DNA of 64,000 bases from Candidatus Poriferihabitaceae bacterium. GTDB taxonomy: Bacteria; Pseudomonadota; Gammaproteobacteria; Arenicellales; Poriferihabitantaceae. The notes below the pieces were generated by a model. That model was not told the origin of the DNA, did not search any database, and saw nothing but the letters and a program-made list of their open reading frames with translations. Made by a program: the position numbers and the translations under genes. Within the stretch, counting starts at the first letter, position 1. Every line of letters begins with the position of its first letter. The stretch lies in NCBI GenBank assembly GCA_965204165.1, contig OZ241969.1:498910-562909 (forward strand), read 5' to 3'. Shown piece by piece: positions 1,668-18,922 of the stretch.

Positions 1668-2441
1668 ATGAGCTGGTGGGGCAAACTGATCGGCGGCACC
1701 CTTGGCTTCCTGGTGGGCGGACCGCTGGGCGCGATGCTCGGCGCCTATTTCGGCCATGGCTTCGACAACCGGGCCGGTGGTTCGGCGCGCGCCCTTCCGG
1801 GCGACCAGGAAAGGGTGCAGACGATCTTCTTCGCCGCCACCTTCTCGGTCATGGGCCACCTCGCCAAGTCCGACGGCAAGGTCACCCGTGACGAGATCGA
1901 ACTTGCCAATGCGCTCATGAGCGAGATGCGGCTCGGGGCGGACCAGCGGCAGCTGGCGAGGACCCTCTTCAACCAGGGGAAGGAGCCGGGATTCGACTTC
2001 GACGGCGTGATCGAGCAGTTTCTCCAGGAATGCCACCGCCGCACGACACTGATCCGGATGTTCCTGGAGATCCAGGTGCAGGCCGCGTTCGCGGACGGGC
2101 GGCTGGACCCGGCGGAAAACCGTCTCCTGTCCAGGCTGGCGGAGATGCTGGGCTTCGATCAACAGACCCTCGAGCAGATCATCAACCTGGTCCGCGGCGC
2201 CGCCCACGCCCATGAGCAGCCGGGCAGGATCAGCGAGGCGGATGCCTACGAGATCCTCGGCGTCGACCCCGAGACCCCGACCGCGGAAATCCGCAAGGCC
2301 TACCGGCGCCTCCTCAGCCAGCATCATCCGGACAAGCTCGTATCCCGGGGACTGCCGGAAGAAATGGTCCGGCTCGCGAACGAGAAGACCGGCGAGATTC
2401 GCAAGGCCTGGGAAACGGTCCGGGAAGCGCGGGCGCAGTAG
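1668..2441 (+). CDS. djlA: co-chaperone DjlA (membrane-anchored J-domain protein)
   Basis: Start moved to ATG 1668 (MSWWGKLIGGTLGFLVGGPLGAMLG is the TM/Gly-rich N-terminus). There is a central TerB-like region and a C-terminal J domain with HPD (AYRRLLSQHHPDKL). Confidence 0.85.
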   Translation: MSWWGKLIGGTLGFLVGGPLGAMLGAYFGHGFDNRAGGSARALPGDQERVQTIFFAATFSVMGHLAKSDGKVTRDEIELANALMSEMRLGADQRQLARTLFNQGKEPGFDFDGVIEQFLQECHRRTTLIRMFLEIQVQAAFADGRLDPAENRLLSRLAEMLGFDQQTLEQIINLVRGAAHAHEQPGRISEADAYEILGVDPETPTAEIRKAYRRLLSQHHPDKLVSRGLPEEMVRLANEKTGEIRKAWETVREARAQ

Positions 2442-2455
2442 CTGGCGGAAGGACC

Positions 2456-3172
2456 ATGGGGAAGGAAAACGGAAAACCCGTCATCGTCTTCGTCGACCAC
2501 CATGAGAACCCCATGGACGACCGGGCGTGGACCTGCATCGGCGACATGGGACTGGGCCGCCGGCTGGTGTGTCCGTTTCGCGGGGAGGAGCTCGGCGACC
2601 CGGGTCCGGAGGTCGCGGGCACGGTGATCTACGGCGGCGCCCAGAATGTGGGCGAACAGGACCGCTTCCCCTTTCTCAGGGGAGAGATCCGGTGGATCGA
2701 ACGGTGCCTGGAAAAGGGTCTGCCGGTGCTCGGCCTGTGCCTTGGCGGACAGCTCCTGGCCCATGTCCTCGGCGCACGGGTGGGTGCACGGGTGCCCCGG
2801 GAATGCGAATTCGGGTACTACCCCCTGATGCCCACCGCCGCAGGGCTTGGCTGGCTGCCGGACGGTATGCACGTCACCCAGGCCCACTACGAGGAGTTCG
2901 ACATCCCGGCGGGAGCGGTTCACCTGGCCTCCAGCGAACGCTTCGCCCACCAGGCTTTCCGCTATGGCGAAAATGCCTTTGGCCTCCAGTTCCATCCGGA
3001 GATCAACAAGCAGGTATTCCGCCGCTGGCAGGCGTCCGACTGGGCGATGTTCGGCGTGCCGGGCGCCCAGGAAAAACACGAACAGGACCGCCTCATGGAT
3101 AAACATGACGATGTCCAGGGCCGCTGGTTTCGCGGTCTCCTGGAAAGCCTGTTCCATACAACCGCCGCCTGA
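2456..3172 (+). CDS. class I glutamine amidotransferase-like protein
   Basis: 238 aa with a GGAAGG SD. It has the nucleophile elbow GLCLGGQ and the downstream LQFHPE His/Glu pair typical of GATase1. Confidence 0.75.
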   Translation: MGKENGKPVIVFVDHHENPMDDRAWTCIGDMGLGRRLVCPFRGEELGDPGPEVAGTVIYGGAQNVGEQDRFPFLRGEIRWIERCLEKGLPVLGLCLGGQLLAHVLGARVGARVPRECEFGYYPLMPTAAGLGWLPDGMHVTQAHYEEFDIPAGAVHLASSERFAHQAFRYGENAFGLQFHPEINKQVFRRWQASDWAMFGVPGAQEKHEQDRLMDKHDDVQGRWFRGLLESLFHTTAA

Positions 3173-3511
3173 ATCCGTGCACCCGGTTCCGGCCGATGCC
3201 GCCCGACATGCACCCCTCCGGGCCCTGACCGGTATAATCGGCATGAAGACAGTCGTCCCGGTATTCGTCCAACCGCTCCGGCCCGATCGATACATGATGT
3301 CCGACGAACCGACACCCGCCACCCTGTGCGCCCAGCCGGCGGAAGGCCCGTATACGGCCGGCCGCCGGCCGGACCGGGCCCGCTCATCCGGTCCGGCCTT
3401 CCCCATCGGGGGCGGCGGCCCGGCCGCCGAAGTCCGATGAACAAGAGGCACGCCCGGCGCCGGTCCGGTCCGCCCGGCGGCAGACGCCGGCGGCGGTCAG
3501 AACGGCGGACG

Positions 3512-3691
3512 ATGGTCGACAACACCGTGCCCTCACCCTGCCAGTCCATCTGCCGTTTCGACGGCGAGCCCTTCTGTATCGGCTGCTATCGCGATGCCGA
3601 CGAGATCCGGGAATGGATGATCATGACCCGCAAACAGAAACTGGCCGTGCTGGAACAGCTGCCGGCCAGGCGCCGCGCCGCCGAACTGTAG
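3512..3691 (+). CDS. DUF1289 (YdhL-like) small Cys-rich protein
   Basis: MVDNTVPSPCQSICRFDGEPFCIGCYRDADEIREW matches the SPCxxxC...CxGC signature of DUF1289. The in-frame upstream ATG at 3437 would add an Arg-rich extension and is judged less likely. Confidence 0.6.
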   Translation: MVDNTVPSPCQSICRFDGEPFCIGCYRDADEIREWMIMTRKQKLAVLEQLPARRRAAEL

Positions 3692-3770: not shown

Positions 3771-5315
3771 CTACCGGGACAGCTGCGGCAGCACGGAGAG
3801 GTCCCCGGCCACCAGGCCGCCGGTTACGAGTTCCCGGGCGACACTGAGTTCATCCGCCAGGTAGCGGTCCCCGGCCAGTGCCGGGACGCGCTCGCGCAGC
3901 ATGGCGATGACCCGCCGGAGCGGCGCGCTGGTCTCAAGGGGCGCGCGGAACCCGATCCCCTGGGCGCTGACCAGCAGTTCGATGCCGACGATCTGGGCGA
4001 GGTTCCGGTTCATGTCCAGCAGCCGTCTTGCGCCGTGGCATGCCATGGAGACGTGGTCCTCCTGGTTGGCGCTGGTGGGTGTGGAATCCACGGAACAGGG
4101 CGCGGCCTTCTGCTTGTTTTCCGCCATCAGCGCGGCGGCGGTGACCTCCGCCACCATGAATCCCGAATTGAGGCCCGGTTCCGGCGACAGGAATGCCGGC
4201 AGCCCGTAGTTCAGGGCCGGATCCACCATGGTGGCGATGCGTCGCTCGGTGATGGCACCGATTTCCGAGACGGCAAGCGCGATCTGGTCGGCGGCGAACG
4301 CCACCGGTTCGGCATGGAAGTTCCCGCCGGACACGATCCGCCCGCCCTCAAGGATCACCAGCGGATTGTCCGTCACCGCATTGGCCTCGATTTCCAGGGT
4401 GGCGGCCGCATGGCGCAACTGGTCGATGCAGGCGCCCATGACCTGGGGCTGGCAGCGCAGGCAGTAGGGGTCCTGAACCCGGTGATCGTTTTCCCTGTGG
4501 GACTCGCGGATTTCGGAATCCCTGAGCAACAAGCGCAGGGCGTCCGCCGCGTCGGCCTGGCCCCGGTGTCCCCGCAGGGCGTGGATTTCGGGACTGAACG
4601 GCTCCGTGGACGCCATCATCGCGTCGCTGGCCATGGCGCCCGTCACCAGGGAACTGCACGCCGCCCGCCAGGCGTCCAGGACGCCCGCAAGGGCCAGTGC
4701 CGCGGAGACCTGGGTGCCGTTGATGAGTCCCAGCCCCTCCTTGGGGCCGAGGACCACGGGCGCGAGGCCGGCCCGCTCGAGGGCGCGGCCGGCCGGCATT
4801 TCCTGCCCCTCCAGCCTGGCCCGGCCCTCGCCCATCATGGCGGCGGTCAGGTGCGCCAGGGGTGCGAGGTCGCCGGACGCACCCACCGAACCCTGACCGG
4901 GAATGACGGGCAGTATCCCCTCATTCAGCATGTCCAGGAGCTGCCGGACAATGGTCCAGCGCACCCCGGAAGCGCCGCGGGCAAGGGAATTGATCTTGAG
5001 CAGCATCACCAGCCGCACAACCTCGTCGGGCAGCGCCTCGCCCACCCCGCAGCAGTGGGACATGATCAGGTTCCGCTGCAGGGTCTCGGTTTCCCCGGCG
5101 TCGATCAGGGTGGTGGCCAGTTTGCCGAAGCCGGTGTTCACGCCGTACACCGCGGCTTCGCCGGCGGCGGCCCGCTCGACGATTCGCGCCGCCCGGTCCA
5201 CGTCCTGCCGGGCTCCGTCATCCAGGGCAACCGTGCCCTGGCGCCGGTAGTGCGATTCCAGGTCCGCGAGCGTCAGCGTGCCCGGGACCAGCTTGAGTGG
5301 GTCGGAGGAAGTCAT
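3771..5315 (-). CDS. hutH: histidine ammonia-lyase
   Basis: 514 aa with the canonical MIO triad in [30 protein letters not shown] and NQEDHVSM motifs are present. Its start overlaps the hutF stop (ATGA). Confidence 0.95.
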
Positions 5316-6697
5316 TGCGCCAGTTGGTTGATAGTCTGCCGAAACCGTTGAAGAACGTCGAGCCGCCCGGGATGACAGCCGTCCCGGACCACCGGCTTGC
5401 CGGCCACATAGACATCGGTCAGCGGGTTTTCATTGCCCGAAAAGACCCAGCTGTCCACCAGTGCGCCCCTTTGCCGCCCCAGGGTGCGCGGCAGGTCGGG
5501 ATCGAGGACGATGAAGTCGGCCCGGGCTCCCGGGCGGATGGCGCCGCCGTCGATGCCGCAGGCCCGGGCACCGCCGAGCGCGCTTTTGGTCAGCAGGTTC
5601 TCGCCGGTGTGCGGACTGTCGCATCCCGCGCCGGCCAGCAGGTTGCGCCCCCGGTGCTGCAGCCTTTGTCCGTATTCCAGCCAGCGCAGCTCCTCCACCG
5701 GGCTGACGGAGATGTGGCTGTCCGAGCCGATCCCGAAACAGCCGCCCTCGCGGAGGAAAGCCGGCGCCGGGAAGATCCCGTCACCCAGGTTGGCCTCGGT
5801 GGTGGGGCACAGCCCCGCCACCGCGCCGGATGCCGCTATCCGGCCGGTTTCCCCGTCGGTGATGTGGGTGGCGTGGACCAGGCACCAGTCCGGGCCGGGG
5901 GAGAATTGATCGTACAGCCACTCCACCGGACGCCTGCCGCTGAACGACAGGCATTCGTCCACTTCCCGCACCTGTTCCGCGACATGGATATGGACGGGCC
6001 GCCCAGCCGGGGCTCCGTCCAGGACCTCGCGCAGCAGGTCCTCGTCCACCGCCCTCAGTGAATGGGGTGCGATGCCGAGTTGCTGACCGGGCTCCAGCCC
6101 GCCCTCGAGCCCGGCGACGATCTCGAGGAAGCCGTCCGCGTCGTTGATGAACCGCTTCTGTCCTTCGCCCGGCGGCAGGGAGCCGAACCCGCCGAACCGG
6201 TAGAGCACCGGCAGCGCGGTGAAGCCGATTCCGGTGTCCCGCGCGGCCCGGGCGCACTGGCGGGTCATTTCCGCCCTGTCGTCATAGGGCCGGCCGGCCG
6301 GATCGTGGTGCAGGTACTGGAACTCGGCGACATGGGTATACCCCGCCTCCAGCATCTCCAGGTAGAGCATCCTGGCGATATGGTACAGCTGGTCGGGCGT
6401 GATTCGTGCCAGCATCCCGTACATGGCCTTGCGCCAGGTCCAGAAGGAATCGTCGACGTCGCCGGCAAGTTCCCCCAGCCCGGCCATGGCCCGCTGGTGG
6501 GCATGGGAATGGAGATTGGGAATTCCGGGCAGCACGACCCCGTCCAGCCGTACCGTGTCCGGGTCCGCATCCTTCAGCCGGATTCCGCTTCGCACCGTAT
6601 CGAAGACGCCGCTCCCGTTCACCCGGAAATGCACGTCTTCCGCCCAGCCGTCGACCAGCAAAACCGATGAACACCAATAGTTTCCTGGCCGGGCCAT
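5312..6697 (-). CDS. hutF: formimidoylglutamate deiminase
   Basis: Amidohydrolase fold with [15 protein letters not shown]. Start set to ATG 6697 ([18 protein letters not shown]...), which matches the usual HutF N-terminus. The longer ORF start at 6745 would overlap hutI. Confidence 0.85.
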
Positions 6698-6743
6698 TGT
6701 GCGACTTGCTTTAGCGGGAACGGCAGTATAGCATACCAGATAC

Positions 6744-7970
6744 ATGTATATACAACTGCTTCAGAACACCCTGCTGGCCCGGCTGGTTGACGGGAACGAC
6801 TACCACCTGTTGCCGGATGCAACCGTGGTGATCGAAGACGATCGCATTGCCTGGGCCGGCCCGGACGCGAATCTTCCCGACCGCTACCGCGGGGCGGACC
6901 GTCTCGACTGCGGCGGACGGCTGCTGACACCCGGACTGATCGACTGCCACACCCACCTGGTCTACGGCGGCAACCGCGCCGGGGAGTTCGAGCGCCGCCT
7001 CCAGGGCGAGGACTACGGGGAAATCGCCCGCCAGGGAGGCGGCATCATGGCCACCGTCCGTGCGACCCGCTCCGCCACCGTGGACGACCTGGTGGTGCAG
7101 TCCCGGCCGCGCCTCGGGGCGCTGGTCGCGGAAGGTGTCACCACCGTGGAAATCAAGTCCGGCTACGGGCTCGAACGGGACACGGAAATCCGCATGCTCG
7201 AGGCCGCGGGGCGCCTTTGCCGGGAAGCGGGCGTTCGCTGCCAGCGGACCTTCCTGGGCGCCCACGCCCTCCCCCCCGAGTTCTCCGGCCGCGCCGACGA
7301 CTACATTGCCCTCGTTTGCGATGACATGCTGCCGCAAGCGGCGGCGGCGGGCGTGGTGGACGCCGTGGACGCCTTCTGCGAGCACATCGCCTTCAGTGTC
7401 GCGCAGACCGAGAGGGTCTTCGACCGGGCACAGGACCTGGGCCTGCCGGTGAAATGCCACGCCGAACAGCTCTCGCACATGGGCGGCGCGGTGATGAGCG
7501 CATCCCGGGGGGCACTGTCCGTCGACCACATCGAGTACCTGCCGGCCGAAAGCGTCGGCAGCCTGGCCGAAGGGAATACCGTGGCCGTGCTGCTGCCCGG
7601 CGCGTTCTATATCCTGAAGGAACGGCAGCTCCCGCCCGTGGCGGCACTGCGGGAACACGGCGTTCCGATCGCGCTCGCCACCGATGCGAACCCGGGCTCC
7701 TCCCCCGTGTTCTCGCCGCTGCTCATCATGAACATGGGCTGCACCCTTTTCGGCCTCACCCCCCTTGAGGCCCTGGCGGGCTTCACCATCAACGCGGCCA
7801 GGGCCCTCGGTCTTGCGGATCGCATCGGCTCCATCGAGCCCGGCAAGGCGGCGGACCTGGCCCTGTGGAACTGCGGCCACCCGGCGGAACTCAGTTACCA
7901 CGTCGGGCTCAACTCCTGTGCGGGGGTGGTCCAGGGCGGCCAGTGGCGGGGCGGGAGGCCGCCGGCATGA
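6744..7970 (+). CDS. hutI: imidazolonepropionase
   Basis: 408 aa with GLIDCHTHLVYGG, KCHAEQLS and ATDANPGSSP motifs of HutI. An in-frame stop lies 5 codons upstream, so ATG 6744 is the only possible start. Confidence 0.9.
   Translation: MYIQLLQNTLLARLVDGNDYHLLPDATVVIEDDRIAWAGPDANLPDRYRGADRLDCGGRLLTPGLIDCHTHLVYGGNRAGEFERRLQGEDYGEIARQGGGIMATVRATRSATVDDLVVQSRPRLGALVAEGVTTVEIKSGYGLERDTEIRMLEAAGRLCREAGVRCQRTFLGAHALPPEFSGRADDYIALVCDDMLPQAAAAGVVDAVDAFCEHIAFSVAQTERVFDRAQDLGLPVKCHAEQLSHMGGAVMSASRGALSVDHIEYLPAESVGSLAEGNTVAVLLPGAFYILKERQLPPVAALREHGVPIALATDANPGSSPVFSPLLIMNMGCTLFGLTPLEALAGFTINAARALGLADRIGSIEPGKAADLALWNCGHPAELSYHVGLNSCAGVVQGGQWRGGRPPA
6745..6754. promoter_or_regulatory. candidate HutC operator (perfect palindrome TGTATATACA)
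   Basis: 10-bp perfect palindrome at the hutI edge of the 46-bp hutF/hutI divergent region, overlapping the hutI ATG (6744). It matches the TGTA-N2-TACA core of enterobacterial and pseudomonad hut operators as I remember them. A hutC repressor gene is in the same locus. Confidence 0.45.
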
Positions 7971-8722
7971 ACCTCGCCGAACTGCAGCACCTGGACCGGA
8001 ACATCGCGTTGCCGCTGTACCAGCAGATCAAGCGCAACATCCGCACCAGCATCCGCAAAAGGCAGTGGCAGCCGGGCACCCGGCTGCCGTCGGAAAACGC
8101 GCTGGTGAACGGTCTTGGCGTCAGCCGCATGACCGTACACCGGGCGCTGCGCGAACTGACCCAGGAAGGCCTGCTCGAGAGAGTGCACGGCCTCGGCACG
8201 TTCGTCGCCAAGCCGCCGCGCCACGCCAGCCTGATCACCCTGCAGGACATCGCCGACGAGATCCGCGAGGCGGGATTCACCCACAACTGTGAAGTGCTCG
8301 AACTCGGGACCGTGAAGGCCGACGCCGCCCGGGCCGGGCTCATGGAGGTGGCCGAGGACGACGGGCTGTACCGCCTCCTCGCGGTCCACTTCCAGGACCG
8401 GGAACCCATCCAGGTCGAGGACCGCCTGGTGAGCCCTTCCCTGGCGCCGGAATTCATCGGACAGGATTTTTCCCGGCATACCGCCACGCAATACCTCGTC
8501 GACCTGATAAAACCGGACGAGATGGAACACATCGTCCAGGCGGTGCTGCCGGACCACTGGACCGCGCAGGCCCTGAACATGGATCCCGCCGAACCCTGCC
8601 TGCAGCTCAACCGCCGGACCTGGAAGGGCGGTCGGGTCGTCACCGGGGTCCGCCTGACCTATCCCGGGTACCGCTATGCCCTGGCGGCCCGTTACCAGAC
8701 CGACCAGTTCACCATCCGCTGA
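7967..8722 (+). CDS. hutC: histidine utilisation repressor (GntR/HutC family)
   Basis: Start moved to ATG 7967 ([25 protein letters not shown]...). It overlaps the hutI stop (ATGA). It has a wHTH ([26 protein letters not shown]) followed by a UTRA-type C-terminal domain. Confidence 0.85.
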
Positions 8723-8733
8723 TCCGCCGAACC

Positions 8734-10407
8734 ATGAAAAGAACCCGCACCGATGACACCCGACGCGTCTCCGCCCCCCGGGGGTCCACCCTGCAGTGCA
8801 AGAGCTGGCTCACCGAGGCGGCCTTTCGCATGATCCAGAACAATCTCGATGCCGAGGTGGCGGAGAATCCGGCGGAACTGATCGTCTATGGCGGCATGGG
8901 CCGCGCCGCCCGGGACTGGGAAAGCTTCGACCGGATCCTGGAGTGCCTGCGGGAACTCGAGGATCACCAGACCCTGCTGGTGCAGTCCGGCAAGCCGGTG
9001 GGGGTCTTTGAAACCCACGCCGACGCGCCCCGGGTACTGATCGCCAATTCCAACCTGGTGCCCGCCTGGGCGAACTGGGATCATTTCAACGAACTGGACC
9101 GCAAGGGCCTCATGATGTACGGCCAGATGACGGCGGGATCCTGGATCTACATCGGCAGCCAGGGCATCGTGCAGGGCACCTATGAAACCTTCGCCGAGGC
9201 GGGCCGCCAGCACTACGGCGGCAAGACCTCCGGCAGATGGGTGCTGACATCCGGTCTCGGCGGCATGGGCGGCGCCCAGCCCCTGGCGGCCACCATGGCG
9301 GGCTTCAGCATTCTCTGCGTGGAATGCGACGAGAGCCGCATCGAATTCAGACTCCGCACCGGCTATCTCGACAAGCGCGCCGCTCATCTTGATGAGGCCC
9401 TGGCCATGATCCGCAGCGCCTGCGAGGCCGGCGAAGCGGTGTCCGTGGGATTGCTCGGCAACGGCGGGGAGATCCTGCCGGAGCTGGTGAGACGCGGGGT
9501 GAAGCCGGATCTCGTCACGGACCAGACCTCGGCCCACGACCCGGTAAACGGCTACCTGCCGGCAGGCTGGACCCTTGGCCGGTGGCACTCGGAACGCCGG
9601 AAGAACCCGCAGCTCGTGGTGGAACAGGCCCGCCGATCCATGGCCGACCATGTCAATGCCATGCTCGCGTTCCACAAGCAGGGAATTCCCACGGTGGACT
9701 ACGGCAACAACATACGCCAGGAGGCCATGAATTACGGCGTGGAAAACGCCTTCGACTTCCCCGGGTTCGTGCCGGCCTACGTGCGGCCGCTGTTCTGCCG
9801 CGGCGTGGGGCCGTTCCGCTGGGTGGCGCTGTCCGGCGACCCGGAGGACATCTACCGGACCGATGCCAAGGTCAAGGAAATGGTGCCGGACGACCCCCAT
9901 CTGCACCACTGGCTCGACATGGCCCAGGAACGCATCCGCTTCCAGGGCCTGCCGGCGCGCATCTGCTGGGTCGGTCTCGGCATCCGCCACCGGCTGGGAC
10001 TGGCCTTCAACGAGATGGTCCGGACCGGGGAACTGAAAGCACCGGTCGTCATCGGCCGCGACCACCTGGATTCCGGCTCCGTGGCCAGCCCCAACCGGGA
10101 GACGGAACTGATGCTCGACGGTTCCGACGCGGTGTCGGACTGGCCCTTCCTGAATGCCATGCTGAACACCGCCAGCGGCGCCACCTGGGTGTCGCTTCAC
10201 CACGGCGGCGGTGTCGGCATGGGCTACTCCCAGCATGCCGGACTGGTGATCGTCTGTGACGGCAGCGAAGACGCCGACCGGCGAATCGCGCGGGTCCTGT
10301 GGAACGATCCCGCCAGCGGTGTCATGCGGCACGCGGATGCCGGATACCAGGACGCACGGCGATGCGCCCGGGAGATGGGTCTCAACCTCGGCGCCATCGA
10401 CCTGTGA
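8734..10407 (+). CDS. hutU: urocanate hydratase
   Basis: 557 aa that reads as typical urocanase throughout ([45 protein letters not shown]). Confidence 0.95.
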
Positions 10408-11411
10408 TGTCCGGACAGATCCAGATCACCTGGCTGAACGGCCGGGACATCGAGGCGCTGGCATTCACGGACGACGAGATCCTGGAGGCGGTGGAAGCGG
10501 GTCTTGGGTTCGCGGGGGAAGGCGAGACCGTGATCGAACCGAGGGTGCACCTCCGGCCGGACCCCGCCTTCAACGGCCATTTCAACGTGCTCCGGGGGTA
10601 CGTCGCGCCCCTTGGCACGGCGGGAGTCAAGATCGTCGGCGACTACGTCGACAACTATCGCCGGGGTCTGCCCTCCGAAATGGCGCTGCTGAACCTGTTC
10701 GACCCGCAAACCGGCATGCCGAAGGCCATCCTCGACGCCACCGCCATCACGGAGATGCGCACCGGGGCGCTCACCGCCATCGGCGCCAAGTACCTCGCCA
10801 GGAAGAATCCCAGGGTGCTCGGCCATGTCGGGGCACGGGGCACGGCGTACTGGAACGTGCGCCTGCTGGACCGATTGTTCGATTTCGCGGAAATCCGGGT
10901 GCATTCCCGCCGGCCCGAAAGCCGCGAGGCCTTTGCCCGGCGCCTGTCCGCGGATCTGGAAAAGGAGGTCATCGCCACCGATGACTGGGAAAGCTGCCTC
11001 GACGGCGCGGACATCCTGGTGGAGGCCTCACGCCTGCCGGAGCCGATGCCGCTGTTCCGGACCCGCTGGATACGCCCCGGTGCCCTGGTGATACCCTACG
11101 GCACCATGAGCGCCCTGGAACTGGACATCACCGACGGCATGGACAAGATCGTGGTGGATGACCGGGGACAGATGAACGCCGGCCCCCTGGGCGCCCTCAG
11201 GCCCCATATCGACGCGGGCAAGGTGAGCCCGGAATCGGTGCATGGCGAGATCGGTGAAATCGTGTGCGGACGCCTTCCGGGCCGGGAGAGCGAGGCCGAG
11301 ACCATCCTGTTCTGGCACCGGGGCCTTGCCACCAGCGACATCGCGCTCGGGGTCGCCATGCTGCAGAAGGCCGGACGCCTGAACATCGGCCGGACGCTCG
11401 ACTACAGCTGA
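10407..11411 (+). CDS. ornithine cyclodeaminase / mu-crystallin family protein
   Basis: Start at ATG 10407 shares one nt with the hutU stop (TGATG). It has the OCD_Mu_crystall pattern (ITEMRTGALTAIGAKYLA and the Rossmann motif LGHVGARGTA). Confidence 0.8.
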   Translation: MSGQIQITWLNGRDIEALAFTDDEILEAVEAGLGFAGEGETVIEPRVHLRPDPAFNGHFNVLRGYVAPLGTAGVKIVGDYVDNYRRGLPSEMALLNLFDPQTGMPKAILDATAITEMRTGALTAIGAKYLARKNPRVLGHVGARGTAYWNVRLLDRLFDFAEIRVHSRRPESREAFARRLSADLEKEVIATDDWESCLDGADILVEASRLPEPMPLFRTRWIRPGALVIPYGTMSALELDITDGMDKIVVDDRGQMNAGPLGALRPHIDAGKVSPESVHGEIGEIVCGRLPGRESEAETILFWHRGLATSDIALGVAMLQKAGRLNIGRTLDYS

Positions 11412-11448: not shown

Positions 11449-12237
11449 ATGGAAGGTGAATTCAACGCCCTGAGATCGGGCATGTTCGCGGGCATCCTGC
11501 TGCTGATGCTGGTCATTGAACGGATCTGGCCGAAGCGGCGGCAGATCGTCCCGGCCTGGCCCAGGCTGAGCACCAACCTGGGGCTCATCGTCATCGACAC
11601 CCTGGTCGTGCGGCTGCTCCTGCCCCTGACGGTGGTGGGTACGGCTGTATGGGCCACTCAGCAGTCCTGGGGACTTTTCAACCAGGTGCAACTGCCGCGG
11701 GCGCTGGAACTGGTCGCCGCCCTGCTGATACTGGACCTCGCCATCTACCTGCAGCACCGCGCCGCACATCACTTCACCTGGTTCTGGCGGATTCACCGGG
11801 TCCATCATGCCGACCCGCGTTTCGATACCACCACCGGCATCCGCTTCCATCCCCTGGAGATCATCATTTCTACCGTCTACAAGATGCTGCTCGTTGTCCT
11901 TCTCGGACCGTCCGCCATCGCCGTGCTGATCTTCGAGATCGTCCTGAACGGAACCTCGCTGTTCACCCATACCAACGTGGCGCTGCCACGCAGGCTGGAT
12001 GCCGTGCTGCGCCTCGTGATCGTGACGCCGGACGTACACCGGGTGCACCACTCCCACCTGTCGGCCGAAACGAACAGCAACTTCGGTTTCAACCTCACGG
12101 TCTGGGACCGGTTGTTTCACACGTGGAAGGAGCAGCCGGACCGGGGGCATGCCGCCATGGACATCGGGCTGCCGGAGTATTCCGACAACATGCCCACCCA
12201 TCTGGGCTGGTGCCTCTGGCTGCCGTTCACGAAATAG
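11449..12237 (+). CDS. fatty acid hydroxylase / sterol desaturase family membrane protein
   Basis: 262 aa and polytopic, with three His boxes (HRAAHH, HRVHHAD, HRVHHSH). Confidence 0.75.
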   Translation: MEGEFNALRSGMFAGILLLMLVIERIWPKRRQIVPAWPRLSTNLGLIVIDTLVVRLLLPLTVVGTAVWATQQSWGLFNQVQLPRALELVAALLILDLAIYLQHRAAHHFTWFWRIHRVHHADPRFDTTTGIRFHPLEIIISTVYKMLLVVLLGPSAIAVLIFEIVLNGTSLFTHTNVALPRRLDAVLRLVIVTPDVHRVHHSHLSAETNSNFGFNLTVWDRLFHTWKEQPDRGHAAMDIGLPEYSDNMPTHLGWCLWLPFTK

Positions 12238-12327: not shown

Positions 12328-13737
12328 ATGACCATCGCCCTGATCGGACCCTCCGGCGCAGGCAAGGGGACGCAGGCCGCCAGGCTGGTTGCAACCCGCG
12401 ACCTGTTGCACATTTCAACCGGAGACCTGTTCCGCGATGCCCTGGAGAAGAGAACGGCACTGGGATTCCTGACCCGGCAGTACATGAATGCCGGCGAGCT
12501 CGTGCCCAACGAGGTGGTCGGCTCGCTGATCGAGGAATGGATGGTCAAGGTGATGCCCAGCAAGGAAATCCTGTTCGACGGTTTTCCCCGGACCCGTCAC
12601 CAGGCCAACCTGCTGGACGACCTGTCCCGGGTCCAGGACCGCCACCTCAGGGCGGCGATCTACCTGAAGGTGTCGGACGAGGAAATCTCCCGGCGCCTGC
12701 CGGGGCGGATCATCTGCCGCACCTGCCAGACGCCCTACCATGTGGAGCACCGTCCGCCGGCGGTGGAGGGCCGCTGCGACCTGTGCCGGGGTGAACTGCA
12801 TACCAGGGACGACGACATCCCGGCCATCGTGCGGACACGCATCCGTACCTCCCACCGCACCCTGGAGCCGCTGCTGGATCATTACGCGGAATCGGGCAAG
12901 CTGCTGATCGTGGACGGCGAGGGAACGGTGGACGAGGTATTCGAGTCCATCTCCCACGCCATGGATGCCGTCGAGCGGGGCATCGCGGCCTTCGCCACAC
13001 CCGAGGAACTGCACGAAATCCAGCCCCTCAAGGGAACCGTCACCGCCATCAGCACCAGCGAGGCCAGGCGCACGCTGGATGTCGTGCTGCTGGGCGGCCC
13101 GGGTTCCGGCAAGGGCACCCAGGCCAAGCACCTGACGAGAAATCTCGGCCTGGACCACGTCGCCACCGGCGATATCTTCCGCCACCACATCCATTCCGAG
13201 ACCGATCTCGGGAGGCTGGCAAAAACCTACATCGACAACGGCGAACTGGTGCCGGACGACGTCACCGAGGCCATGGTGGAGGACCGCCTGGAACAGATCG
13301 CCCAGGGCCGCGGATTCATCCTGGACGGCTTCCCCCGCACCACCCCCCAGGCGGAGGCGCTGACGGAGATCATGAACAAGCTGCAGCGGCGGCTGGCAGC
13401 GGTAATGCACATCAAGGTGGACGATGACGCCATCGTGGAGCGCCTGTCCAACCGGCTCACCTGCCGCAGTTGCCAGACACCGTTCCACCGGCGCTACAAT
13501 CCCCCGGAGAAAGAGGGCGTCTGCGACAAGTGCGGCGGCGAACTGTACGTGCGGGACGATGACAATCCGGAAACGGTGCGGACCAGGCTGAAGACATACC
13601 ATGCCCAGACCGAGCCGTTGATCGCCTACTACCGGGACGCCGGCCTCCTGATGGATATTGACGGCGAACTGCCGCTCAACGAGGTGACCCGGTCCATGGC
13701 CCACGAACTGGAAAACATCAGGGCGGACCTTTCCTAG
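12328..13737 (+). CDS. adk: tandem (double) adenylate kinase fusion
   Basis: 469 aa containing two complete ADK modules. Module 1 has GPSGAGKGTQ, DGFPRT, CRTC..CDLC and RDDD. Module 2 has GGPGSGKGTQ, DGFPRT, CRSC..CDKC and RDDD. Confidence 0.85.
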   Translation: MTIALIGPSGAGKGTQAARLVATRDLLHISTGDLFRDALEKRTALGFLTRQYMNAGELVPNEVVGSLIEEWMVKVMPSKEILFDGFPRTRHQANLLDDLSRVQDRHLRAAIYLKVSDEEISRRLPGRIICRTCQTPYHVEHRPPAVEGRCDLCRGELHTRDDDIPAIVRTRIRTSHRTLEPLLDHYAESGKLLIVDGEGTVDEVFESISHAMDAVERGIAAFATPEELHEIQPLKGTVTAISTSEARRTLDVVLLGGPGSGKGTQAKHLTRNLGLDHVATGDIFRHHIHSETDLGRLAKTYIDNGELVPDDVTEAMVEDRLEQIAQGRGFILDGFPRTTPQAEALTEIMNKLQRRLAAVMHIKVDDDAIVERLSNRLTCRSCQTPFHRRYNPPEKEGVCDKCGGELYVRDDDNPETVRTRLKTYHAQTEPLIAYYRDAGLLMDIDGELPLNEVTRSMAHELENIRADLS

Positions 13738-13754
13738 GGCCATCCCGCCGGCCG

Positions 13755-14675
13755 TTACGGAATGCGCGGGCGGCGGTTCACCAGGTACACCCCGGCGCAG
13801 ACCATGGCGAGCGCCCACAGCACGGAGGACGTCAGGTCCTCCCCCAGGATCAGCCAGCCGAATATCACGCCGAAAACCGGCGCAAGAAAACTGAACGACG
13901 CCATGTCCGCGGCGGGATACACCGACAGCACCCAGAACCAGACCAGGAACCCGAGGCAGATCACCACCAGCACCTGGAAGGCCACCAGCCAGGCCGTCAG
14001 CGCGGTGAACTGCCGAACCGGGTCGCCGACCAAGGCGGCGGCAGCCATCAGGATGACCGCCGACACCACGAGCTGGTACAGGAGCTGCATTTCCGGGCAG
14101 GCCCTGGACAGGCTGGTGGTTCGGGCCACGAGGATGATGCCCGCCCAGAACACGGCGGCGACGAGGCAGTAGAGATCTCCGCGCAGGGTGGGGCGCAGCG
14201 TGTCGAAATGGTCGGACATTGCAACCACGACGCCCGCCACCGCGAGAACGAGCCCGGCCAGCCGGACCAGGGTCAGGTTTTCGCCCGGAATCATGAAGTG
14301 GGCCCCGACAGCCGCCCAGAACGGCATCGTGTAGAAGAATACCGAGGCACGGGCCACCGTCGTGTGGTCCAGCGCCGGGAAGAGCAGGAGAAATTCGCTG
14401 GCGAAGAAAACGCCGGCGAGAATCCCGGGGGCCAGGCTGCCGTCGCGCAGCGTCAGCCTGCGGCGGAGGGCCATCGCCACGAGAAGGACCGGAAGGATGG
14501 CCAGGGCGGAACGCAGCCCGGCCTGGAACACCGGCTGCAACCCGATATTGGTCACCTTCACCACTACCTGGTTGAGCCCCATCAGCGCCGAGCAGAAAAT
14601 CAGGAGCCCCGCGCCCAGCCCGTCAATACGCTCGCGCCGCCGGGTAACCGGTAACCTCCTGGTCGTGTCGTTCAT
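13755..14675 (-). CDS. DMT superfamily (EamA-like) transporter
   Basis: 306 aa with about 10 predicted TM segments and the duplicated EamA pattern. Confidence 0.8.
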   Translation of the reverse strand: MNDTTRRLPVTRRRERIDGLGAGLLIFCSALMGLNQVVVKVTNIGLQPVFQAGLRSALAILPVLLVAMALRRRLTLRDGSLAPGILAGVFFASEFLLLFPALDHTTVARASVFFYTMPFWAAVGAHFMIPGENLTLVRLAGLVLAVAGVVVAMSDHFDTLRPTLRGDLYCLVAAVFWAGIILVARTTSLSRACPEMQLLYQLVVSAVILMAAAALVGDPVRQFTALTAWLVAFQVLVVICLGFLVWFWVLSVYPAADMASFSFLAPVFGVIFGWLILGEDLTSSVLWALAMVCAGVYLVNRRPRIP

Positions 14676-14786: not shown

Positions 14787-15491
14787 ATGCAAAGATTCAG
14801 CGGCAAGAAAGCCATTGTCCTCGGCGGCACCTCCGGTATCGGCCTCGCGGTTTGCCGCCAGCTCCGGGACGAGGGGGCGAACGTCCTCGCCGCCAGCCGC
14901 CGGGGCAGTACGGAAACCGGCGAGGAGGGCATCGAGACCGTGGCCTGCGACGTGCTGGACCGCGAGGCCCTGGACCGGCTTTTTTCCGCCCATGCACCCT
15001 TCGACTTCCTGGTATGCGCCGCCACCGGCGGCCCCCGGGCCCGGGGACCGTTCCTGGACATGGACCTGGACGCCTTCCAGGCATCCTTCGCCAAGCTCTG
15101 GGGCTATACCAACGCCGTCCACAGCGGCACGCCGCATCTGGCCGAGAACGGCGCCATCGTGCTCATCAGCGGGTCACCGGCCCGCAAGTCCGGCCCGGGC
15201 ATGCTCGCCATATCCACGGTCGGCAACGCCGTGGAAGGGTTCGCCCGGGCACTCGCCCCGGAGATTCCCCCCCGGCGCATCAACGTGGTTTCGCCGGGCA
15301 CCATCGACACGCCGATGTTCCCCATGGAAGGCGATGAACGGGCGCGGTATTTACGGGACCAGACCGGAGACAACGCCATTCCGCGGGCGGGAAAGCCGGA
15401 GGAAGTGGCGGAGGCGGTGCTGTTCCTGCTCGGCAACGAATTCGTGACGGGCACCACCGTGGACGTGGACGGGGGCGCGCTGCTGCCCTGA
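14787..15491 (+). CDS. short-chain dehydrogenase/reductase (SDR)
   Basis: Start moved to ATG 14787 (MQRFSGKKAIVLGGTSGIGLAV carries the TGxxxGxG motif). The C-terminus VTGTTVDVDGG is typical of SDRs. Confidence 0.8.
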   Translation: MQRFSGKKAIVLGGTSGIGLAVCRQLRDEGANVLAASRRGSTETGEEGIETVACDVLDREALDRLFSAHAPFDFLVCAATGGPRARGPFLDMDLDAFQASFAKLWGYTNAVHSGTPHLAENGAIVLISGSPARKSGPGMLAISTVGNAVEGFARALAPEIPPRRINVVSPGTIDTPMFPMEGDERARYLRDQTGDNAIPRAGKPEEVAEAVLFLLGNEFVTGTTVDVDGGALLP

Positions 15492-16502: not shown

Positions 16503-18002
16503 TCAGAGGTCTTCGCAGATTCCTCCGGCGATCCGGTCTGCCAGGGCGTCTATGGCATCACCAAGCGGCCGTTCCGCCGCCGCCGGCTCCACCACCTTCC
16601 TGACGCGGTCATGGAGTTCGGCCAGCAACGGGGCCGAGGTCGGACCGCCTCGCAATTCCGCGGCCCGGTCCGCCACCATCATCTCCATGGCGCACAGTTT
16701 CCATCCCAGTTCGACCACGCCCTGCAGACCCTTGACGGCGGCGGGCGCATTGGACTGGATGTCCTCCACGCCATCCGCATTCACACTGGGCCAGACCGGC
16801 ACCGGCATGGCCGCGTGGCCAAGTTCCGCCACCACCGACTCGGCAACCTTCATGAGCGGGGCGAAGCCGTTGGCATCGAGGCCGGGCGCCGCCAGGTACT
16901 GGGGCAGTCCGCTGAAGCGCTCTGAGAGCAGCTTGCTCATTCGGGCAAGCTGCGCCTGGGACAGTTGCACCAGTGCCTGGGACAGGGCGTGGGCGGCGAC
17001 CGTCAGGAGCGGCGTATGAAACGCGCCGCAGGAGATGATGCGGTCCCCGGCAAGGTCGACCACGGGGTTGTCGCTGGCACTGTTGATTTCCGCGCAGGCC
17101 GCCTCCTTCGCGAAATCCAGCGCGGCGAATGCGGCGCCGTGAACCTGCGGAAGGTTCCGTATCGACAGCGGATCCTGCAGCCGCCGGGCATTTGCCGGGT
17201 CGACGATCCGGCTCCCCGCCAGCAGCCGGCGCAGATCCCCGGCGGCCCGGGCCTGCCCCGGCTGCGGATGCAGATCGTCCACCAAGGCATCGAGCGGTGT
17301 CGTGGAGGCCTCGAACGCATCCATCGACATGGCCGCGGCGCCCTGCGCCGCACCGAGCAGGCGTCCCGCGCCGTGGACCGCCAGTGCCATGGCCGCCGCG
17401 GAAAACCCGGAGTGATTCGCCAGGGCGAGACCGTCCCTCGGTCCGGGCGACAGGGGGGCCAGTCCCGCCTCGGACAGCGCCTTAGCGGCATCCATCGTCC
17501 GGCCCCGGGCATCAGTCATCCGCCCTTCCCCGCACAGGGCCAGACCCAGAACAGCCCCCTGGCAGAGGTCGCCGGCACCGATGGAACCGACGCTGCCGAC
17601 CACCGGTGTCAGCCCCCGGTTGAGACACTCGCAGAGCATCTCCGGCACCGAGGCATCCGCGCCCGCGGCGCCTTTCATCAGCGTGTTCAGCCGCACCGCC
17701 ATCGCGGCCCGGACCTGGGTCCTGGACAGGGGCGTACCGATGGCATGGGCCCGGCCCCGCAGGGTTTTCAGTGAAAAGTCCGCCGCCTCCGCCGCGGTCA
17801 GTGTCTCAGTTGCACGGGACCCGAGGCCGGTGGTGAGCCCGTAGACCTGTTCCCCCTTCCCGAGGGCTTGAAGCACCCGGTCCCGGGCCCGGCGCACCCG
17901 CTCAAGACCCGCCTCGTCCAGCGACACTCCGGCGTCGGGCGAGGCGGCGATCCGGGCAAGTTGGTCAAGGGTGAGGCTGCTGCCATCAACGACGACAGCC
18001 AT
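16503..18002 (-). CDS. HAL/PAL-family (aromatic amino acid lyase fold) protein lacking the MIO-forming Ser
   Basis: Start moved to ATG 18002 (MAVVVDGSSLTLDQL...), which shares one nt with the stop of the upstream desaturase gene (TGATG). Family motifs YGLTTGLG, QDPLSIRNLPQVHGA, NSASDNPVV and GVEDIQSN are present. The Ala-Ser-Gly triad reads Gly-Ala-Gly (GSIGAGDL, codons at 17571-17579). Confidence 0.75.
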   Translation of the reverse strand: MAVVVDGSSLTLDQLARIAASPDAGVSLDEAGLERVRRARDRVLQALGKGEQVYGLTTGLGSRATETLTAAEAADFSLKTLRGRAHAIGTPLSRTQVRAAMAVRLNTLMKGAAGADASVPEMLCECLNRGLTPVVGSVGSIGAGDLCQGAVLGLALCGEGRMTDARGRTMDAAKALSEAGLAPLSPGPRDGLALANHSGFSAAAMALAVHGAGRLLGAAQGAAAMSMDAFEASTTPLDALVDDLHPQPGQARAAGDLRRLLAGSRIVDPANARRLQDPLSIRNLPQVHGAAFAALDFAKEAACAEINSASDNPVVDLAGDRIISCGAFHTPLLTVAAHALSQALVQLSQAQLARMSKLLSERFSGLPQYLAAPGLDANGFAPLMKVAESVVAELGHAAMPVPVWPSVNADGVEDIQSNAPAAVKGLQGVVELGWKLCAMEMMVADRAAELRGGPTSAPLLAELHDRVRKVVEPAAAERPLGDAIDALADRIAGGICEDL

Positions 18003-18922
18003 CAGGGCGCGCCGGCAACCGCGGCAGCAGGTTTCCGGCCGAGCGCGCGATAGATCTCCCGGTTCACCCGGAAATAGCCGTGGCCGACATGGACCAGACG
18101 GTCGGATATCAGGCGGTTGGCCTGCGGCAGGCGGTGGAAGGGGATGCCCGCGTAGGCATGGTGCGCGGTGTGGAGATTCATGTTCCAGCAGAGCCGCTGC
18201 AGCAACGGGTTGGTCAGCGTGGTGCGGGTGTTGTCGAACATGTCGGGAACCTCGGGGCAACCGGTATGTTCCGCAAGCAGGAACATGCGCAGCGCCGGCT
18301 GCGCCACCATGACCGGCAGTATCCAGTACCACCACAGCGCCGCAGTCTGGAATACCACGGACAGCGTTGCCAGTGCGCCGTAGATCAGCAGGAACCGCCG
18401 GGCCTCCGCTACCACTGCGTCCCGCCGGGACGCCGGCACGAAATCATCGGCCCGGCCGGAAGCATACCGAAGGAACATGCGGCCCTGGGCAGCCCAGTAG
18501 GGCAGCCCGCTGACATGCCGGACATAGCCCCACCTGGAGCCGGGTTTCGGCACCCCGAGTTCCGGGTCGCCGGGTACCTGGGTGTGGCGATGGTGCGTCA
18601 TGTGGAAGGCCCGGAAGTACCGGGGCGGCAGGAACAGGACCAGTCCGCAAAGGAACGCCACGCCACGGTTCAGGCCGCGCGACGCAAAAGCGGTTTCGTG
18701 AATGGTTTCGTGCAGGGGGCAGAACGAGAAAACCAGCACCACCGCGTAGCCGCACCAGCAGAGCGCCGCCGGCACCGGCGGCAGCCACAGGGAGCCGGCG
18801 GCCAGCAGACCCAGCAGCAGCAGGTGCAGCGCCAGGGCTCCGAGGCCCGCCCCGTCGGTCTTCACCACAAGACCGGACAGGACATCCGGGTCGATTGCCT
18901 GGGATCGTCGTGCCTGGGACAT
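18002..18922 (-). CDS. membrane fatty acid desaturase family protein
   Basis: 306 aa with His boxes HETIH, HMTHHRH and HTAHH, plus TM segments. Confidence 0.8.
   Translation of the reverse strand: MSQARRSQAIDPDVLSGLVVKTDGAGLGALALHLLLLGLLAAGSLWLPPVPAALCWCGYAVVLVFSFCPLHETIHETAFASRGLNRGVAFLCGLVLFLPPRYFRAFHMTHHRHTQVPGDPELGVPKPGSRWGYVRHVSGLPYWAAQGRMFLRYASGRADDFVPASRRDAVVAEARRFLLIYGALATLSVVFQTAALWWYWILPVMVAQPALRMFLLAEHTGCPEVPDMFDNTRTTLTNPLLQRLCWNMNLHTAHHAYAGIPFHRLPQANRLISDRLVHVGHGYFRVNREIYRALGRKPAAAVAGAP

Follow-up and report, generated by a model that had tools for sequence, protein, structure and literature searches.

Adenylate kinase (ADK) is among the most studied models for catalysis and domain motion, and the bacterial enzyme, Adk, is usually regarded as a monomer with one module. 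Fusions are on record, as in the HGPRT/adenylate kinase protein of Zobellia galactanivorans (PMC7326950). Two-domain PPK2 enzymes of class II convert NMP to NDP, and a polyphosphate:AMP phosphotransferase (PAP) together with ADK regenerates ATP from polyphosphate and AMP (PMC8776046, PMC11968564), a route of ATP regeneration described for Acinetobacter johnsonii 210A (Resnick and Zehnder 2000, as cited in PMC8776046). Within the 64-kb stretch of gammaproteobacterial DNA analysed here (the window), we found a single ORF, with an ATG start and no internal stop, that encodes two ADK modules in one chain:

12328–13737, plus strand: complete tandem adenylate kinase gene, 469 aa plus stop (ORF list, translation, Pfam)
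12328–12978, plus strand: N-terminal ADK module, aa 1–217, with P-loop GPSGAGKGTQ (aa 7–16), TGDLFR, DGFPRT and RDDD
12715–12786, plus strand: zinc LID of the N module, C130/C133/C150/C153, one of two PF05191 stretches
12979–13074, plus strand: inter-module linker, aa 218–249, with a semi-conserved F-A-T-x-E-E motif and, at aa 225–231, a short helix predicted by AlphaFold
13075–13734, plus strand: C-terminal ADK module, aa 250–469, with P-loop GGPGSGKGTQ (aa 256–265), TGDIFR, DGFPRT and RDDD
13462–13533, plus strand: zinc LID of the C module, C379/C382/C399/C402, best PF05191 stretch aa 376–411

A first-pass annotation, made from the sequence, had described a fused double ADK with two full zinc-LID modules in one 469-aa ORF, and the ORF, Pfam and NCBIfam evidence agree with it. 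The domain scan that it proposed matched PF00406 (ADK, E 2.7e-93) and PF05191 (ADK_lid, E 3e-24) twice each. Its module estimates (aa 1 to about 215 and about 250 to 469, with a linker of about 35 aa) lie close to the borders set by the ADK profile, aa 1–217 and 250–466, between which about 32 aa (nt 12979–13074) remain as linker, and each motif it quoted was present in the translation: both P-loops, TGDLFR/TGDIFR, DGFPRT twice, RDDD twice and the four-Cys LIDs CRTC..CDLC and CRSC..CDKC. The two halves aligned without gaps at 41% identity over 215 residues (E 6e-66), where about 40 percent had been judged by eye. Searched alone against NCBIfam, the N half (aa 1–215) scored 205.2 bits on TIGR01351, above the cut-off of 168, and the N module scored 220.7 bits on the NF001380 equivalog, below the cut-off of 251. 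The C half (aa 250–469), whose failure to score as an ADK would have spoken against a fusion, passed both models, with 283.4 bits on NF001380 (cut-off 251) and 249 bits on TIGR01351 (cut-off 168). Each module therefore has what marks an ADK (profile scores, P-loop GxxGxGK, catalytic residues and Cys4 LID), but the chain, with 469 aa and two modules, departs from the single module of about 215 aa that defines a canonical Adk. It is as good as certain that the window gene encodes a real tandem ADK, each module being complete with CORE, NMP-binding and zinc-LID parts. AlphaFold2 modelled the whole chain with a mean pLDDT of 86.9 and a pTM of 0.84, with a linker helix at aa 225–231 and a pLDDT of about 69 for aa 231–240; the pTM, which is indirect evidence for an interface between the modules, suggests that the two are packed in a fixed arrangement, probably as a covalent pseudo-dimer.

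The first-pass annotation named no described bacterial equivalent; likewise, full-text literature searches found no paper on a bacterial tandem ADK or an ADK–PPK2 operon, and the PDB held no solved tandem bacterial ADK and no sequence-matching chain longer than 245 aa. The family is so far uncharacterised. A search for the same architecture in relatives, which had also been proposed, showed that 119 of the best 120 homologues were full-length tandem proteins (461–511 aa, 53–97% identity), all labelled merely ‘adenylate kinase’, from named sources in Gammaproteobacteria, Anaerolineae/Chloroflexota, Verrucomicrobiota/Opitutaceae, Lentisphaerales and Gemmatimonadota. A profile scan of genome contigs with the full-length alignment gave at least seven tandem loci among the matches listed, and a metagenome-contig scan with the N half plus linker gave one new tandem locus (L094); single-domain adk matches dominated both scans, in the second because the pattern FDGFPRTxxQ is universal, and the matches listed for the first did not include the genome of the window itself. 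Judged by these sequences, the bacterial tandem architecture is not rare and extends over several phyla.

We placed 180 modules in a neighbour-joining tree with E. coli Adk as the root; it is a rough, distance-based tree and carries no support values. All N modules grouped in one clade and the C modules in a second, and N–N and C–C patristic distances correlated (r = 0.81). Because the modules of each kind form one clade across phyla, a single fusion is indicated, and an old one, as the first-pass annotation had proposed; one ancient duplication or fusion would later have spread across bacterial phyla. Base composition did not favour a recent acquisition by horizontal transfer in this gammaproteobacterium, a reading that was rejected: the GC content of the gene is 0.648 where the window has 0.661, and its GC3 of 0.86 falls in the 0.85–0.88 range of the neighbouring genes; since both values match its surroundings, the gene appears to have been long resident.

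The strongest functional clue is the linkage of the family to PPK2 and acs genes in relatives. Loci were sampled opportunistically and comprised 16 informative lineages, in eight of which a PPK2 gene adjoined the tandem ADK; six of these PPK2 genes encode polyphosphate:AMP phosphotransferases. The latter, TIGR03708 genes, lay less than 100 nt downstream of the ADK stop or overlapped it (L006, L007, L008, L011, L089 and the P0109 locus), and the three that were typed scored 643–690 bits against a cut-off of 547.65. In L088 and L092, a TIGR03707 PPK2 gene lay upstream. Two of the 16 lineages (L086/L087 and L175) shared an acs-DUF4212-SSF-[2xADK]-DUF294 cluster, and the remaining six had no informative neighbour. 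The genes secY, map or infA were beside the tandem ADK in none of the 16, whereas in Chloroflexota (L031, L015) single adk genes come after secY. All of this linkage lies outside the window and was unseen by the earlier reader.

The tandem ADK appears to be an accessory, non-housekeeping, AMP-recycling kinase, and the family is probably coupled to polyphosphate- and AMP-handling enzymes. We put this explanation as a whole at a probability of about 0.6, its parts (a real tandem, activity of both modules, coupling in the family and coupling at the window’s own locus) being graded separately. Each module most likely catalyses ATP + AMP <-> 2 ADP, and the tandem enzyme would process AMP beside the enzymes that make or use it. 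With a polyphosphate:AMP phosphotransferase, AMP and polyphosphate would give ADP, and two ADP would then give ATP and AMP; with a class-I-like PPK2 the tandem ADK would supply ADP, and where the partner is an AMP-forming acetyl-CoA synthetase, the AMP released would be recycled. Polyphosphate-driven ATP regeneration may be the ancestral coupling.

Conservation argues for two working modules. In 44 N modules, K13, R36, R88, Q92, R123, R127, R160, D162, D163 and R171 were kept in 89–100%, and in 44 C modules all catalytic residues (in E. coli numbering K13, R36, R88, Q92, R119, R123, R156, D158, D159 and R167) were kept in 98–100%; the zinc cysteines were kept in 93–100% and 98–100%, respectively. 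The earlier statement that catalytic motifs are intact in both halves thus extends from the window to the 44 sampled members of the family. In the gammaproteobacterial clade, dN/dS was 0.05–0.19 for each half and 0.07–0.17 overall. In the linker, pN was far below pS (0.014 versus 0.162; 0.049 versus 0.223), T224 was at least 90% conserved in one alignment (A2) and the motif F-A-T-x-E-E was seen in two (A1 and A2). Mean identity within the family was 65% for C modules and 55% for N modules, against 44% for single-domain ADKs, and by this measure divergence between phyla is smaller in the tandem family than in ordinary Adk. Conserved as they are, both modules are very probably active.

The modules may nevertheless differ in what they do. 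One could imagine a bifunctional nucleotide kinase with an ordinary ATP:AMP kinase as its C module and an N module that prefers another donor or acceptor, a division of labour that we consider rather unlikely. GTP:AMP, (d)NMP, or GDP/GMP made by PAP would be options for the N module. Across the family, the N module evolves faster by a factor of 1.44 and is less like single ADKs (39% identity, against 46% for the C module, which is 50–52% identical to its nearest single-domain ADKs), and falls, as above, below the NF001380 cut-off; it carries family-specific changes (P9->S in the P-loop, L83->F, an invariant R177 and, in 57%, Q16->H), and a variant subgroup (P0148–P0152, P0166) has lost the N-module zinc LID. 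Against such a division, Q92, T31, R36 and R88, which are AMP-site residues in E. coli Adk structures, are kept in the N module, and within the gammaproteobacterial clade it is the N half that is more conserved than the C half. PAP enzymes phosphorylate GMP too (PMC8776046), a further point in favour of a specialised N module.

The coupling seen in relatives has no visible counterpart around the window gene, which is surrounded by hut, transporter and lipid-modifying genes, with the following immediate neighbours:

11449–12237, plus strand: fatty-acid hydroxylase family gene, upstream (PF04116, E 5.8e-28), 90 nt from the ADK start
13755–14675, minus strand: EamA-family transporter gene, downstream and convergent (ORF list; PF00892 in the gene tables of L001–L005)

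Because the EamA gene is convergent, the tandem ADK gene ends its transcription unit; a scan for promoters and terminators around it gave nothing above shuffled expectation. In the gammaproteobacterial clade (L001–L005, L090, L093), the fatty-acid hydroxylase gene keeps its place to the left of the tandem ADK, and no functional link between the two is inferred. No tblastn match to PPK2 at E 1e-5 was obtained anywhere in the 64 kb, and none lay within 10 kb of the tandem ADK in two related gammaproteobacterial genomes. The polyphosphate link therefore does not hold locally, and the TIGR03708 gene encoded with the ADK in six relatives has no equivalent in the window. That polyphosphate coupling extends, by homology with these relatives, to the window’s own gene is rather doubtful; without a partner, the tandem ADK of this gammaproteobacterium presumably adds adenylate-equilibrating capacity.

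The window gene could also be the sole housekeeping ADK of this gammaproteobacterial lineage, the tandem having replaced the canonical single-domain adk with plain Adk function, a reading to which we give a lower chance still than to divided labour. The genome check for a canonical adk proposed in the first-pass annotation, answered here for the window, found none elsewhere in the 64 kb, which says little because this is about 1.3% of the 4.99-Mb contig that carries the exact protein. The related genome L090 has no adk after htpG, which is where adk lies in E. coli, and this leaves room for the tandem being the only ADK. The strong purifying selection in the gammaproteobacterial clade and the long residence of the gene, with GC and GC3 like those of its neighbours, would fit such a replacement, which is possible in principle because a tandem ADK of Lentimicrobium (L071) holds the usual hpt-adk-obg position. 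However, the hut, transporter and lipid-modifying surroundings are no position known for adk, and other phyla tie the family to PPK2 or acs, never to secY or map.

A stronger version of the accessory reading is speculative, and no likelier than replacement. The tandem ADK would be the dedicated partner of polyphosphate-dependent nucleotide kinases, the pseudo-dimer and a two-domain PAP together forming a compact polyphosphate-to-ATP buffer module that spread horizontally between phyla; the ADK modules would have specialised, for example with one facing PAP and taking ADP directly, or one handling guanine nucleotides, and the window lineage would use a PPK2 encoded elsewhere.

By analogy with class II PPK2, one module might instead be catalytically silent, with a regulatory or scaffolding role: the two-domain PPK2 that is so often the neighbour has an inactive N domain (PMC8776046), and the independent Lentimicrobium tandem ADK (L071) has a degenerate second LID. 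This is very improbable, as the catalytic residues are kept in both modules in 89–100% of 44 members and purifying selection acts on both halves.

Weakest of all, and already refuted, is an artefact, in which a sequencing or assembly error joined two neighbouring adk genes or a repeat was collapsed. No support for it was found beyond the superficial point that some NCBI records give just a 220-aa product. Against it, an identical protein is encoded on at least four contigs that differ in sample or assembler, and an error of assembly or a frameshift is thereby excluded, as the first-pass annotation had held for a repeat; the DNA beneath one 220-aa record (L093) holds the intact 469-aa ORF; 130 of 138 candidates tested have two long modules within a single chain; the linker has a semi-conserved motif; and halves at 41% protein identity cannot collapse as a repeat.

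Those short records cut the tandem ADK to its 220-aa C half by a false start, the CTG at 13075. A separate C-half protein from an internal start was considered and rejected, this CTG being the sole candidate and the full ORF being intact in that DNA. We likewise rejected a 467-aa ORF on the opposite strand (12415–13818), read as a shadow ORF of which this GC-rich window has many. Because some NCBI records cut the gene to canonical length, automated annotation may under-report the tandem architecture; the lesson for annotation is that a gene can be trimmed to fit the length expected of it.

With two apparently active modules in one chain, conserved across several phyla, the family offers a natural system for the effects of covalent ADK pairing on cooperativity, stability and split specificity. 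The operon link to PAP suggests a PAP + ADK route, genetically encoded, that leads from polyphosphate to ATP and is relevant to polyphosphate-accumulating bacteria and to enzymatic ATP regeneration in biocatalysis.

Among known systems, the closest to each module is the canonical long-LID zinc Adk (B. subtilis and Geobacillus stearothermophilus, PDB 1p3j and 1zin; reconstructed ancestors such as 5g3y), which each module matches over its full length; the C module reaches E 6e-66 to 5g3y and, with the best chains, 44–50% identity and a TM of about 0.8 normalised to the target. Shared features are the P-loop, the catalytic arginines and aspartates, the conserved Q92 and the Cys4 LID. The canonical enzymes are, however, monomeric chains of about 215 aa, whereas the tandem has two modules that are joined by a semi-conserved linker and probably meet at a fixed interface; its N-module P-loop reads GPSG, not GPPG, and its genomic position is unlike that of a housekeeping adk.

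Mammalian AK8 (sperm axoneme, 9fqr chain G8, 475 residues) also has two modules and aligns with the tandem ADK over 464 columns, but at 22% identity, with a TM of 0.37 and an rmsd of 27 Å, its modules are arranged differently, and neither shared descent nor a shared arrangement was found. The bacterial fusion looks independent, because its clades hold only its own family and a short-LID-N variant, with single-domain ADKs as sister. Long proteins of 900–2700 aa with 2–14 matched ADK stretches were seen in the representative search, and flagellar multi-ADK proteins occur in protists; the eukaryotic multi-ADK proteins are axoneme-docked, whereas the tandem bacterial ADK is presumably cytoplasmic.

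Pseudomonas aeruginosa PA3455 (PPK2C), a two-domain class II PPK2, is likewise a P-loop nucleotide kinase, about 500 aa long and duplicated internally in tandem; it is unrelated by sequence, and its N domain is inactive, whereas both ADK modules keep their catalytic residues. A 389-aa tandem of short ADKs occurs in Lentimicrobium/Bacteroidales (L071, L073; ADK-ADK in one ORF in L071). With short LIDs, almost no linker, the degenerate second LID, the hpt-adk-obg position and 29% identity, the L071 tandem is, by its sequence features, an independent event. The Zobellia protein joins ADK to a different enzyme; like the L071 tandem, it shows that fusion of ADK modules happens in bacteria. A dedicated PAP–ADK operon was not found in the literature. 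The ADK of the A. johnsonii 210A pathway is reportedly an ordinary single-domain enzyme; in six relatives of the window gene the two activities of that pathway stand side by side, 2xADK followed by the TIGR03708 PAP.

The tandem adenylate kinase (ADK) of the window is encoded by one uninterrupted frame in which a linker joins two modules:

12328–13737, + strand: tandem ADK gene, single ORF with ATG start, 469 codons and zero internal stops
12979–13074, + strand: inter-module linker of ~32 residues, between the ADK-profile borders

A Pfam scan of the 469-aa protein found PF00406 (ADK) twice and PF05191 (ADK_lid) twice, in non-overlapping stretches as the first-pass annotation had expected. Scanned separately against NCBIfam, the N half (aa 1–215) scored 205.2 bits on TIGR01351, above the cut-off of 168, and 220.7 bits on the stricter equivalog model NF001380, under its cut-off of 251; the C half (aa 250–469) scored 283.4 bits on NF001380, above cut-off. 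The halves align without gaps over 215 residues at 41% identity (E 6e-66), close to the 40% estimated by eye in that annotation. Its claim of two complete modules in one uninterrupted ORF is thus borne out by the ORF, Pfam and the per-half NCBIfam scores, and every motif it quoted is present in the translation.

An ADK profile made of 66 single-domain sequences placed the modules at aa 1–217 and 250–466. The linker between them is not junk, because it carries a semi-conserved F-A-T-x-E-E motif (T224 is kept in at least 90% in family alignments) and its pN is well under pS within the gammaproteobacterial clade. A 467-aa ORF at 12415–13818 (− strand) runs antisense to nearly the whole ADK gene; we took it as a shadow ORF, since overlaps between long ORFs of opposite strands occur throughout this 66% GC window.

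The identical 469-aa protein was found on at least four contigs (two ENA metagenome and two Logan assemblies) from different samples and assemblers; contigs that carry it reach 4.99 Mb, and 27 members make up its 90% cluster. Apart from one truncated exception, the best 120 homologues in a large protein collection are 461–511 aa long, with 95–100% query coverage and 53–97% identity, and a module scan found two long ADK modules per chain in 130 of 138 candidates. The independent samples and assemblers, together with full-length homologues of the same architecture in several phyla, exclude an assembly artefact, as had been argued from the sequence. In some NCBI records (MDE0715418.1 and others) the product of this gene is just 220 aa long, and at least three within the same 90% cluster are cut to the C-terminal 220 aa. 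At one such locus in a related genome (L093; GCA_028820605.1, JAPPIN010000045.1), the full 469-aa ORF equivalent to window 12328–13737 is intact at 2254–3663; the deposited CDS starts at the CTG of L250, read as Met, leaving 838 nt upstream without a called gene. The short record is therefore an annotation truncation and not a split gene, and the tandem architecture may be under-reported in annotations.

The cluster of the window protein bears the source name ‘Gammaproteobacteria bacterium’, and distant full-length homologues are named Anaerolineae/Chloroflexota, Verrucomicrobiota (Opitutaceae, Opitutia), Lentisphaerales and Gemmatimonadota. In a 50%-identity representative library, the family comprises four full-length collinear representatives (P0141–P0143 and P0146). 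Recent import into the window genome was rejected on composition, as the gene (GC 0.648, GC3 0.86; window GC 0.661) is near its neighbours' values. Two lineages have transposase genes next to the tandem ADK, L092 (4227–5234, IS110) and L174 (27–2108 and 10959–12242, DDE, mutator-type), which would agree with movement of the ADK gene between genomes.

A rough neighbour-joining tree, rooted on E. coli Adk, took in 180 modules: 44 N and 44 C modules, those of the variants, 68 single-domain ADKs, and modules of other two-module proteins. In it the N modules, short-LID variants included, all fell into one clade, and another held all 44 C modules with four of five variant C modules. Pairwise patristic distances among N modules correlated with the C-module distances for the same proteins (r = 0.81), from which we infer that the halves have travelled together since a single fusion; these clades and distances agree with the old duplication-fusion originally proposed. 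The N module evolves 1.44 times faster than the C module. Mean identities were 55% (N–N), ~66% (C–C), 45% (N–C), 39% (N–single), 46% (C–single) and 44% (single–single). Because N modules are nearer to C modules than to any single ADK, the sequences would fit descent from a C-like ancestor by tandem duplication. The origin could instead be a fusion of two paralogues, given that the N and C clades are not sisters in this rough tree. Whichever the origin, conservation between phyla is higher in this family than in ordinary Adk, a pattern suggestive of horizontal spread, of tighter constraint, or of both. Five variants of 437–446 aa (P0148, P0149, P0151, P0152 and P0166) lack the zinc LID insertion in the N module and retain the zinc LID in the C module; the insertion was lost secondarily, since these N modules fall within the N clade.

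Both modules of the window protein hold K13, R36, R88, Q92, R119, R123, R156, D158, D159 and R167 (E. coli numbering) and four LID cysteines. In a sample of 44 family members, these catalytic residues and cysteines are kept in 89–100% of N and 98–100% of C modules, so the intact motifs noticed in this protein hold family-wide. Within the gammaproteobacterial clade, dN/dS is 0.05–0.13 for the N half and 0.10–0.19 for the C half. It is plausible, and compatible with a doubly active enzyme, that the modules are sub-functionalised: besides evolving faster, the N module has small conserved changes of its own (P-loop GPPG to GPSG, L83 to F, and an invariant R177). That one module is silent is unlikely in view of the retained catalytic residues, and nothing in the sequences points to a pseudo-enzyme half.

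An AlphaFold2 model of the whole chain, from a 28-sequence alignment, gave a mean pLDDT of 86.9 and pTM of 0.84, with a short helix predicted in the linker (aa 225–231). This pTM suggests a defined inter-module packing, and so a putative covalent pseudo-dimer. Pseudo-dimer stabilisation, higher or cooperative activity, and split nucleotide specificity are candidate reasons for fusing two modules.

The genes around the tandem ADK in the window are:

3771–11411: histidine-utilisation cluster (aromatic-lyase/HutH-like, two amidohydrolases, GntR/UTRA regulator, urocanase), then an ornithine cyclodeaminase-family gene
11449–12237: fatty-acid hydroxylase family gene, directly upstream, 90-nt gap to ADK
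directly downstream of ADK, convergent: EamA transporter gene

The order upstream is thus histidine-utilisation cluster, cyclodeaminase-family gene, hydroxylase-family gene and tandem ADK. The hydroxylase–ADK pair is kept in three related genomes (L005, L090 and L093). The histidine-utilisation cluster is present in L005 and absent from the same place in L090, and is therefore a variable insertion upstream of the pair. The region is also rich in lipid- or aromatic-modifying enzymes: in addition to the hydroxylase, it has an SDR (~14787–15491) and another gene of the aromatic amino-acid lyase family (499 aa), adjoining a fatty-acid desaturase family gene (~16503–18922, − strand). Neither tRNA genes nor Rfam families at gathering threshold were found across 1–64000, and the 64-kb window holds no PPK2 gene.

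More telling neighbours occur in other phyla:

~500-aa two-domain PPK2 downstream: Opitutaceae (L006), Verrucomicrobiota (L007), Opitutia (L008), Lentisphaerales (L011), Gemmatimonadota (L089) and the P0109 locus
acs–tandem ADK cluster, Anaerolineae: L086 1606–9330; L175 1734–9281

In these six PPK2 lineages, the PPK2 gene starts 15–96 nt past the ADK stop or overlaps it; the three of six that were typed score 643–690 bits on TIGR03708 (polyphosphate:AMP phosphotransferase, PAP; cut-off 547.65). A PPK2 of ~300 aa passing TIGR03707 lies just upstream of ADK in two more lineages, across a 48-nt gap in L088 and with the IS110 transposase intervening in L092, where an AMP-forming ligase is nearby. 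The two Anaerolineae clusters run acs (AMP-forming acetyl-CoA synthetase), DUF4212, sodium:solute symporter, tandem ADK and DUF294 (cNMP-binding/CBS nucleotidyltransferase-like), then histidine kinase and response regulator, and the tandem ADK there apparently belongs to an operon for acetate activation. Six lineages (the gamma clade, L009, L010, L091, L094 and L174) have no telling neighbours, and the L012 contig ends at the gene.

Class II PPK2s, usually two-domain, use polyphosphate to convert NMP to NDP, and PAP with adenylate kinase is the classical way of making ATP from polyphosphate and AMP (PMC8776046, PMC11968564). An ADK in an operon with PAP fits this scheme exactly: AMP and polyphosphate would give ADP, and 2 ADP would then give ATP and AMP. 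Beside a class-I-like PPK2, the tandem ADK would supply ADP from AMP, and beside Acs it would remove the AMP that Acs forms. Because these linkages share a theme, which we read as AMP handling by an accessory ADK, we read the family as a tandem, putatively doubly active ADK working with AMP-producing or -consuming enzymes, above all polyphosphate-dependent kinases. Linkage in relatives thus yields a testable functional hypothesis; for the window gene itself, the same function would follow by homology, without support in its local neighbourhood.

The tandem ADK could alternatively be the sole housekeeping ADK of the window lineage: no second adk was found in the 64-kb window, which is only ~1.3% of the 4.99-Mb contig, and none after htpG in the related genome L090. 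Next to the tandem gene, secY, map and infA are absent in all 16 informative lineages; single-domain adk of Chloroflexota follows secY (L031 and L015) and in L015 also precedes map.

Full-text literature largely outside subscription journals yielded no paper that treats a tandem ADK in bacteria, a result in keeping with the initial impression that no bacterial equivalent had been described, and none that treats an ADK–PPK2 operon or the sample accessions. The finding is real and its first interpretation is supported overall: this is an uncharacterised yet widespread form of a very well-known enzyme, of concern to the adenylate kinase and polyphosphate metabolism fields, and it overturns nothing.

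ADK–ADK fusions arose at least twice in bacteria. In a Lentimicrobium sp. MAG (L071 7998–9167), a single 389-aa ORF encodes two short-LID modules that nearly abut; the LID of the second is degenerate and lacks R-x-D-D. At only 29% identity to the window protein, this ORF is apparently a tandem ADK of independent origin; lying between hpt and obg (the hpt–adk–obg position), it may be the housekeeping ADK of its lineage. A Bacteroidales UBA6248 MAG (L073 8001–9146) gave the same two-module tblastn pattern. A PDB sequence search returned zero matching chains longer than 245 residues, and the sole two-module fold match was AK8 of the bovine sperm axoneme (9fqr_G8; 22% identity), where a TM of 0.37 and rmsd of 27 Å indicate a different module arrangement. 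Eukaryotic AK8-type proteins resemble the tandem ADK only in having two modules, and the fusions appear independent. Each module is a bona fide long-LID member of the adenylate kinase family, whereas the whole protein departs from the single-module architecture of canonical Adk.
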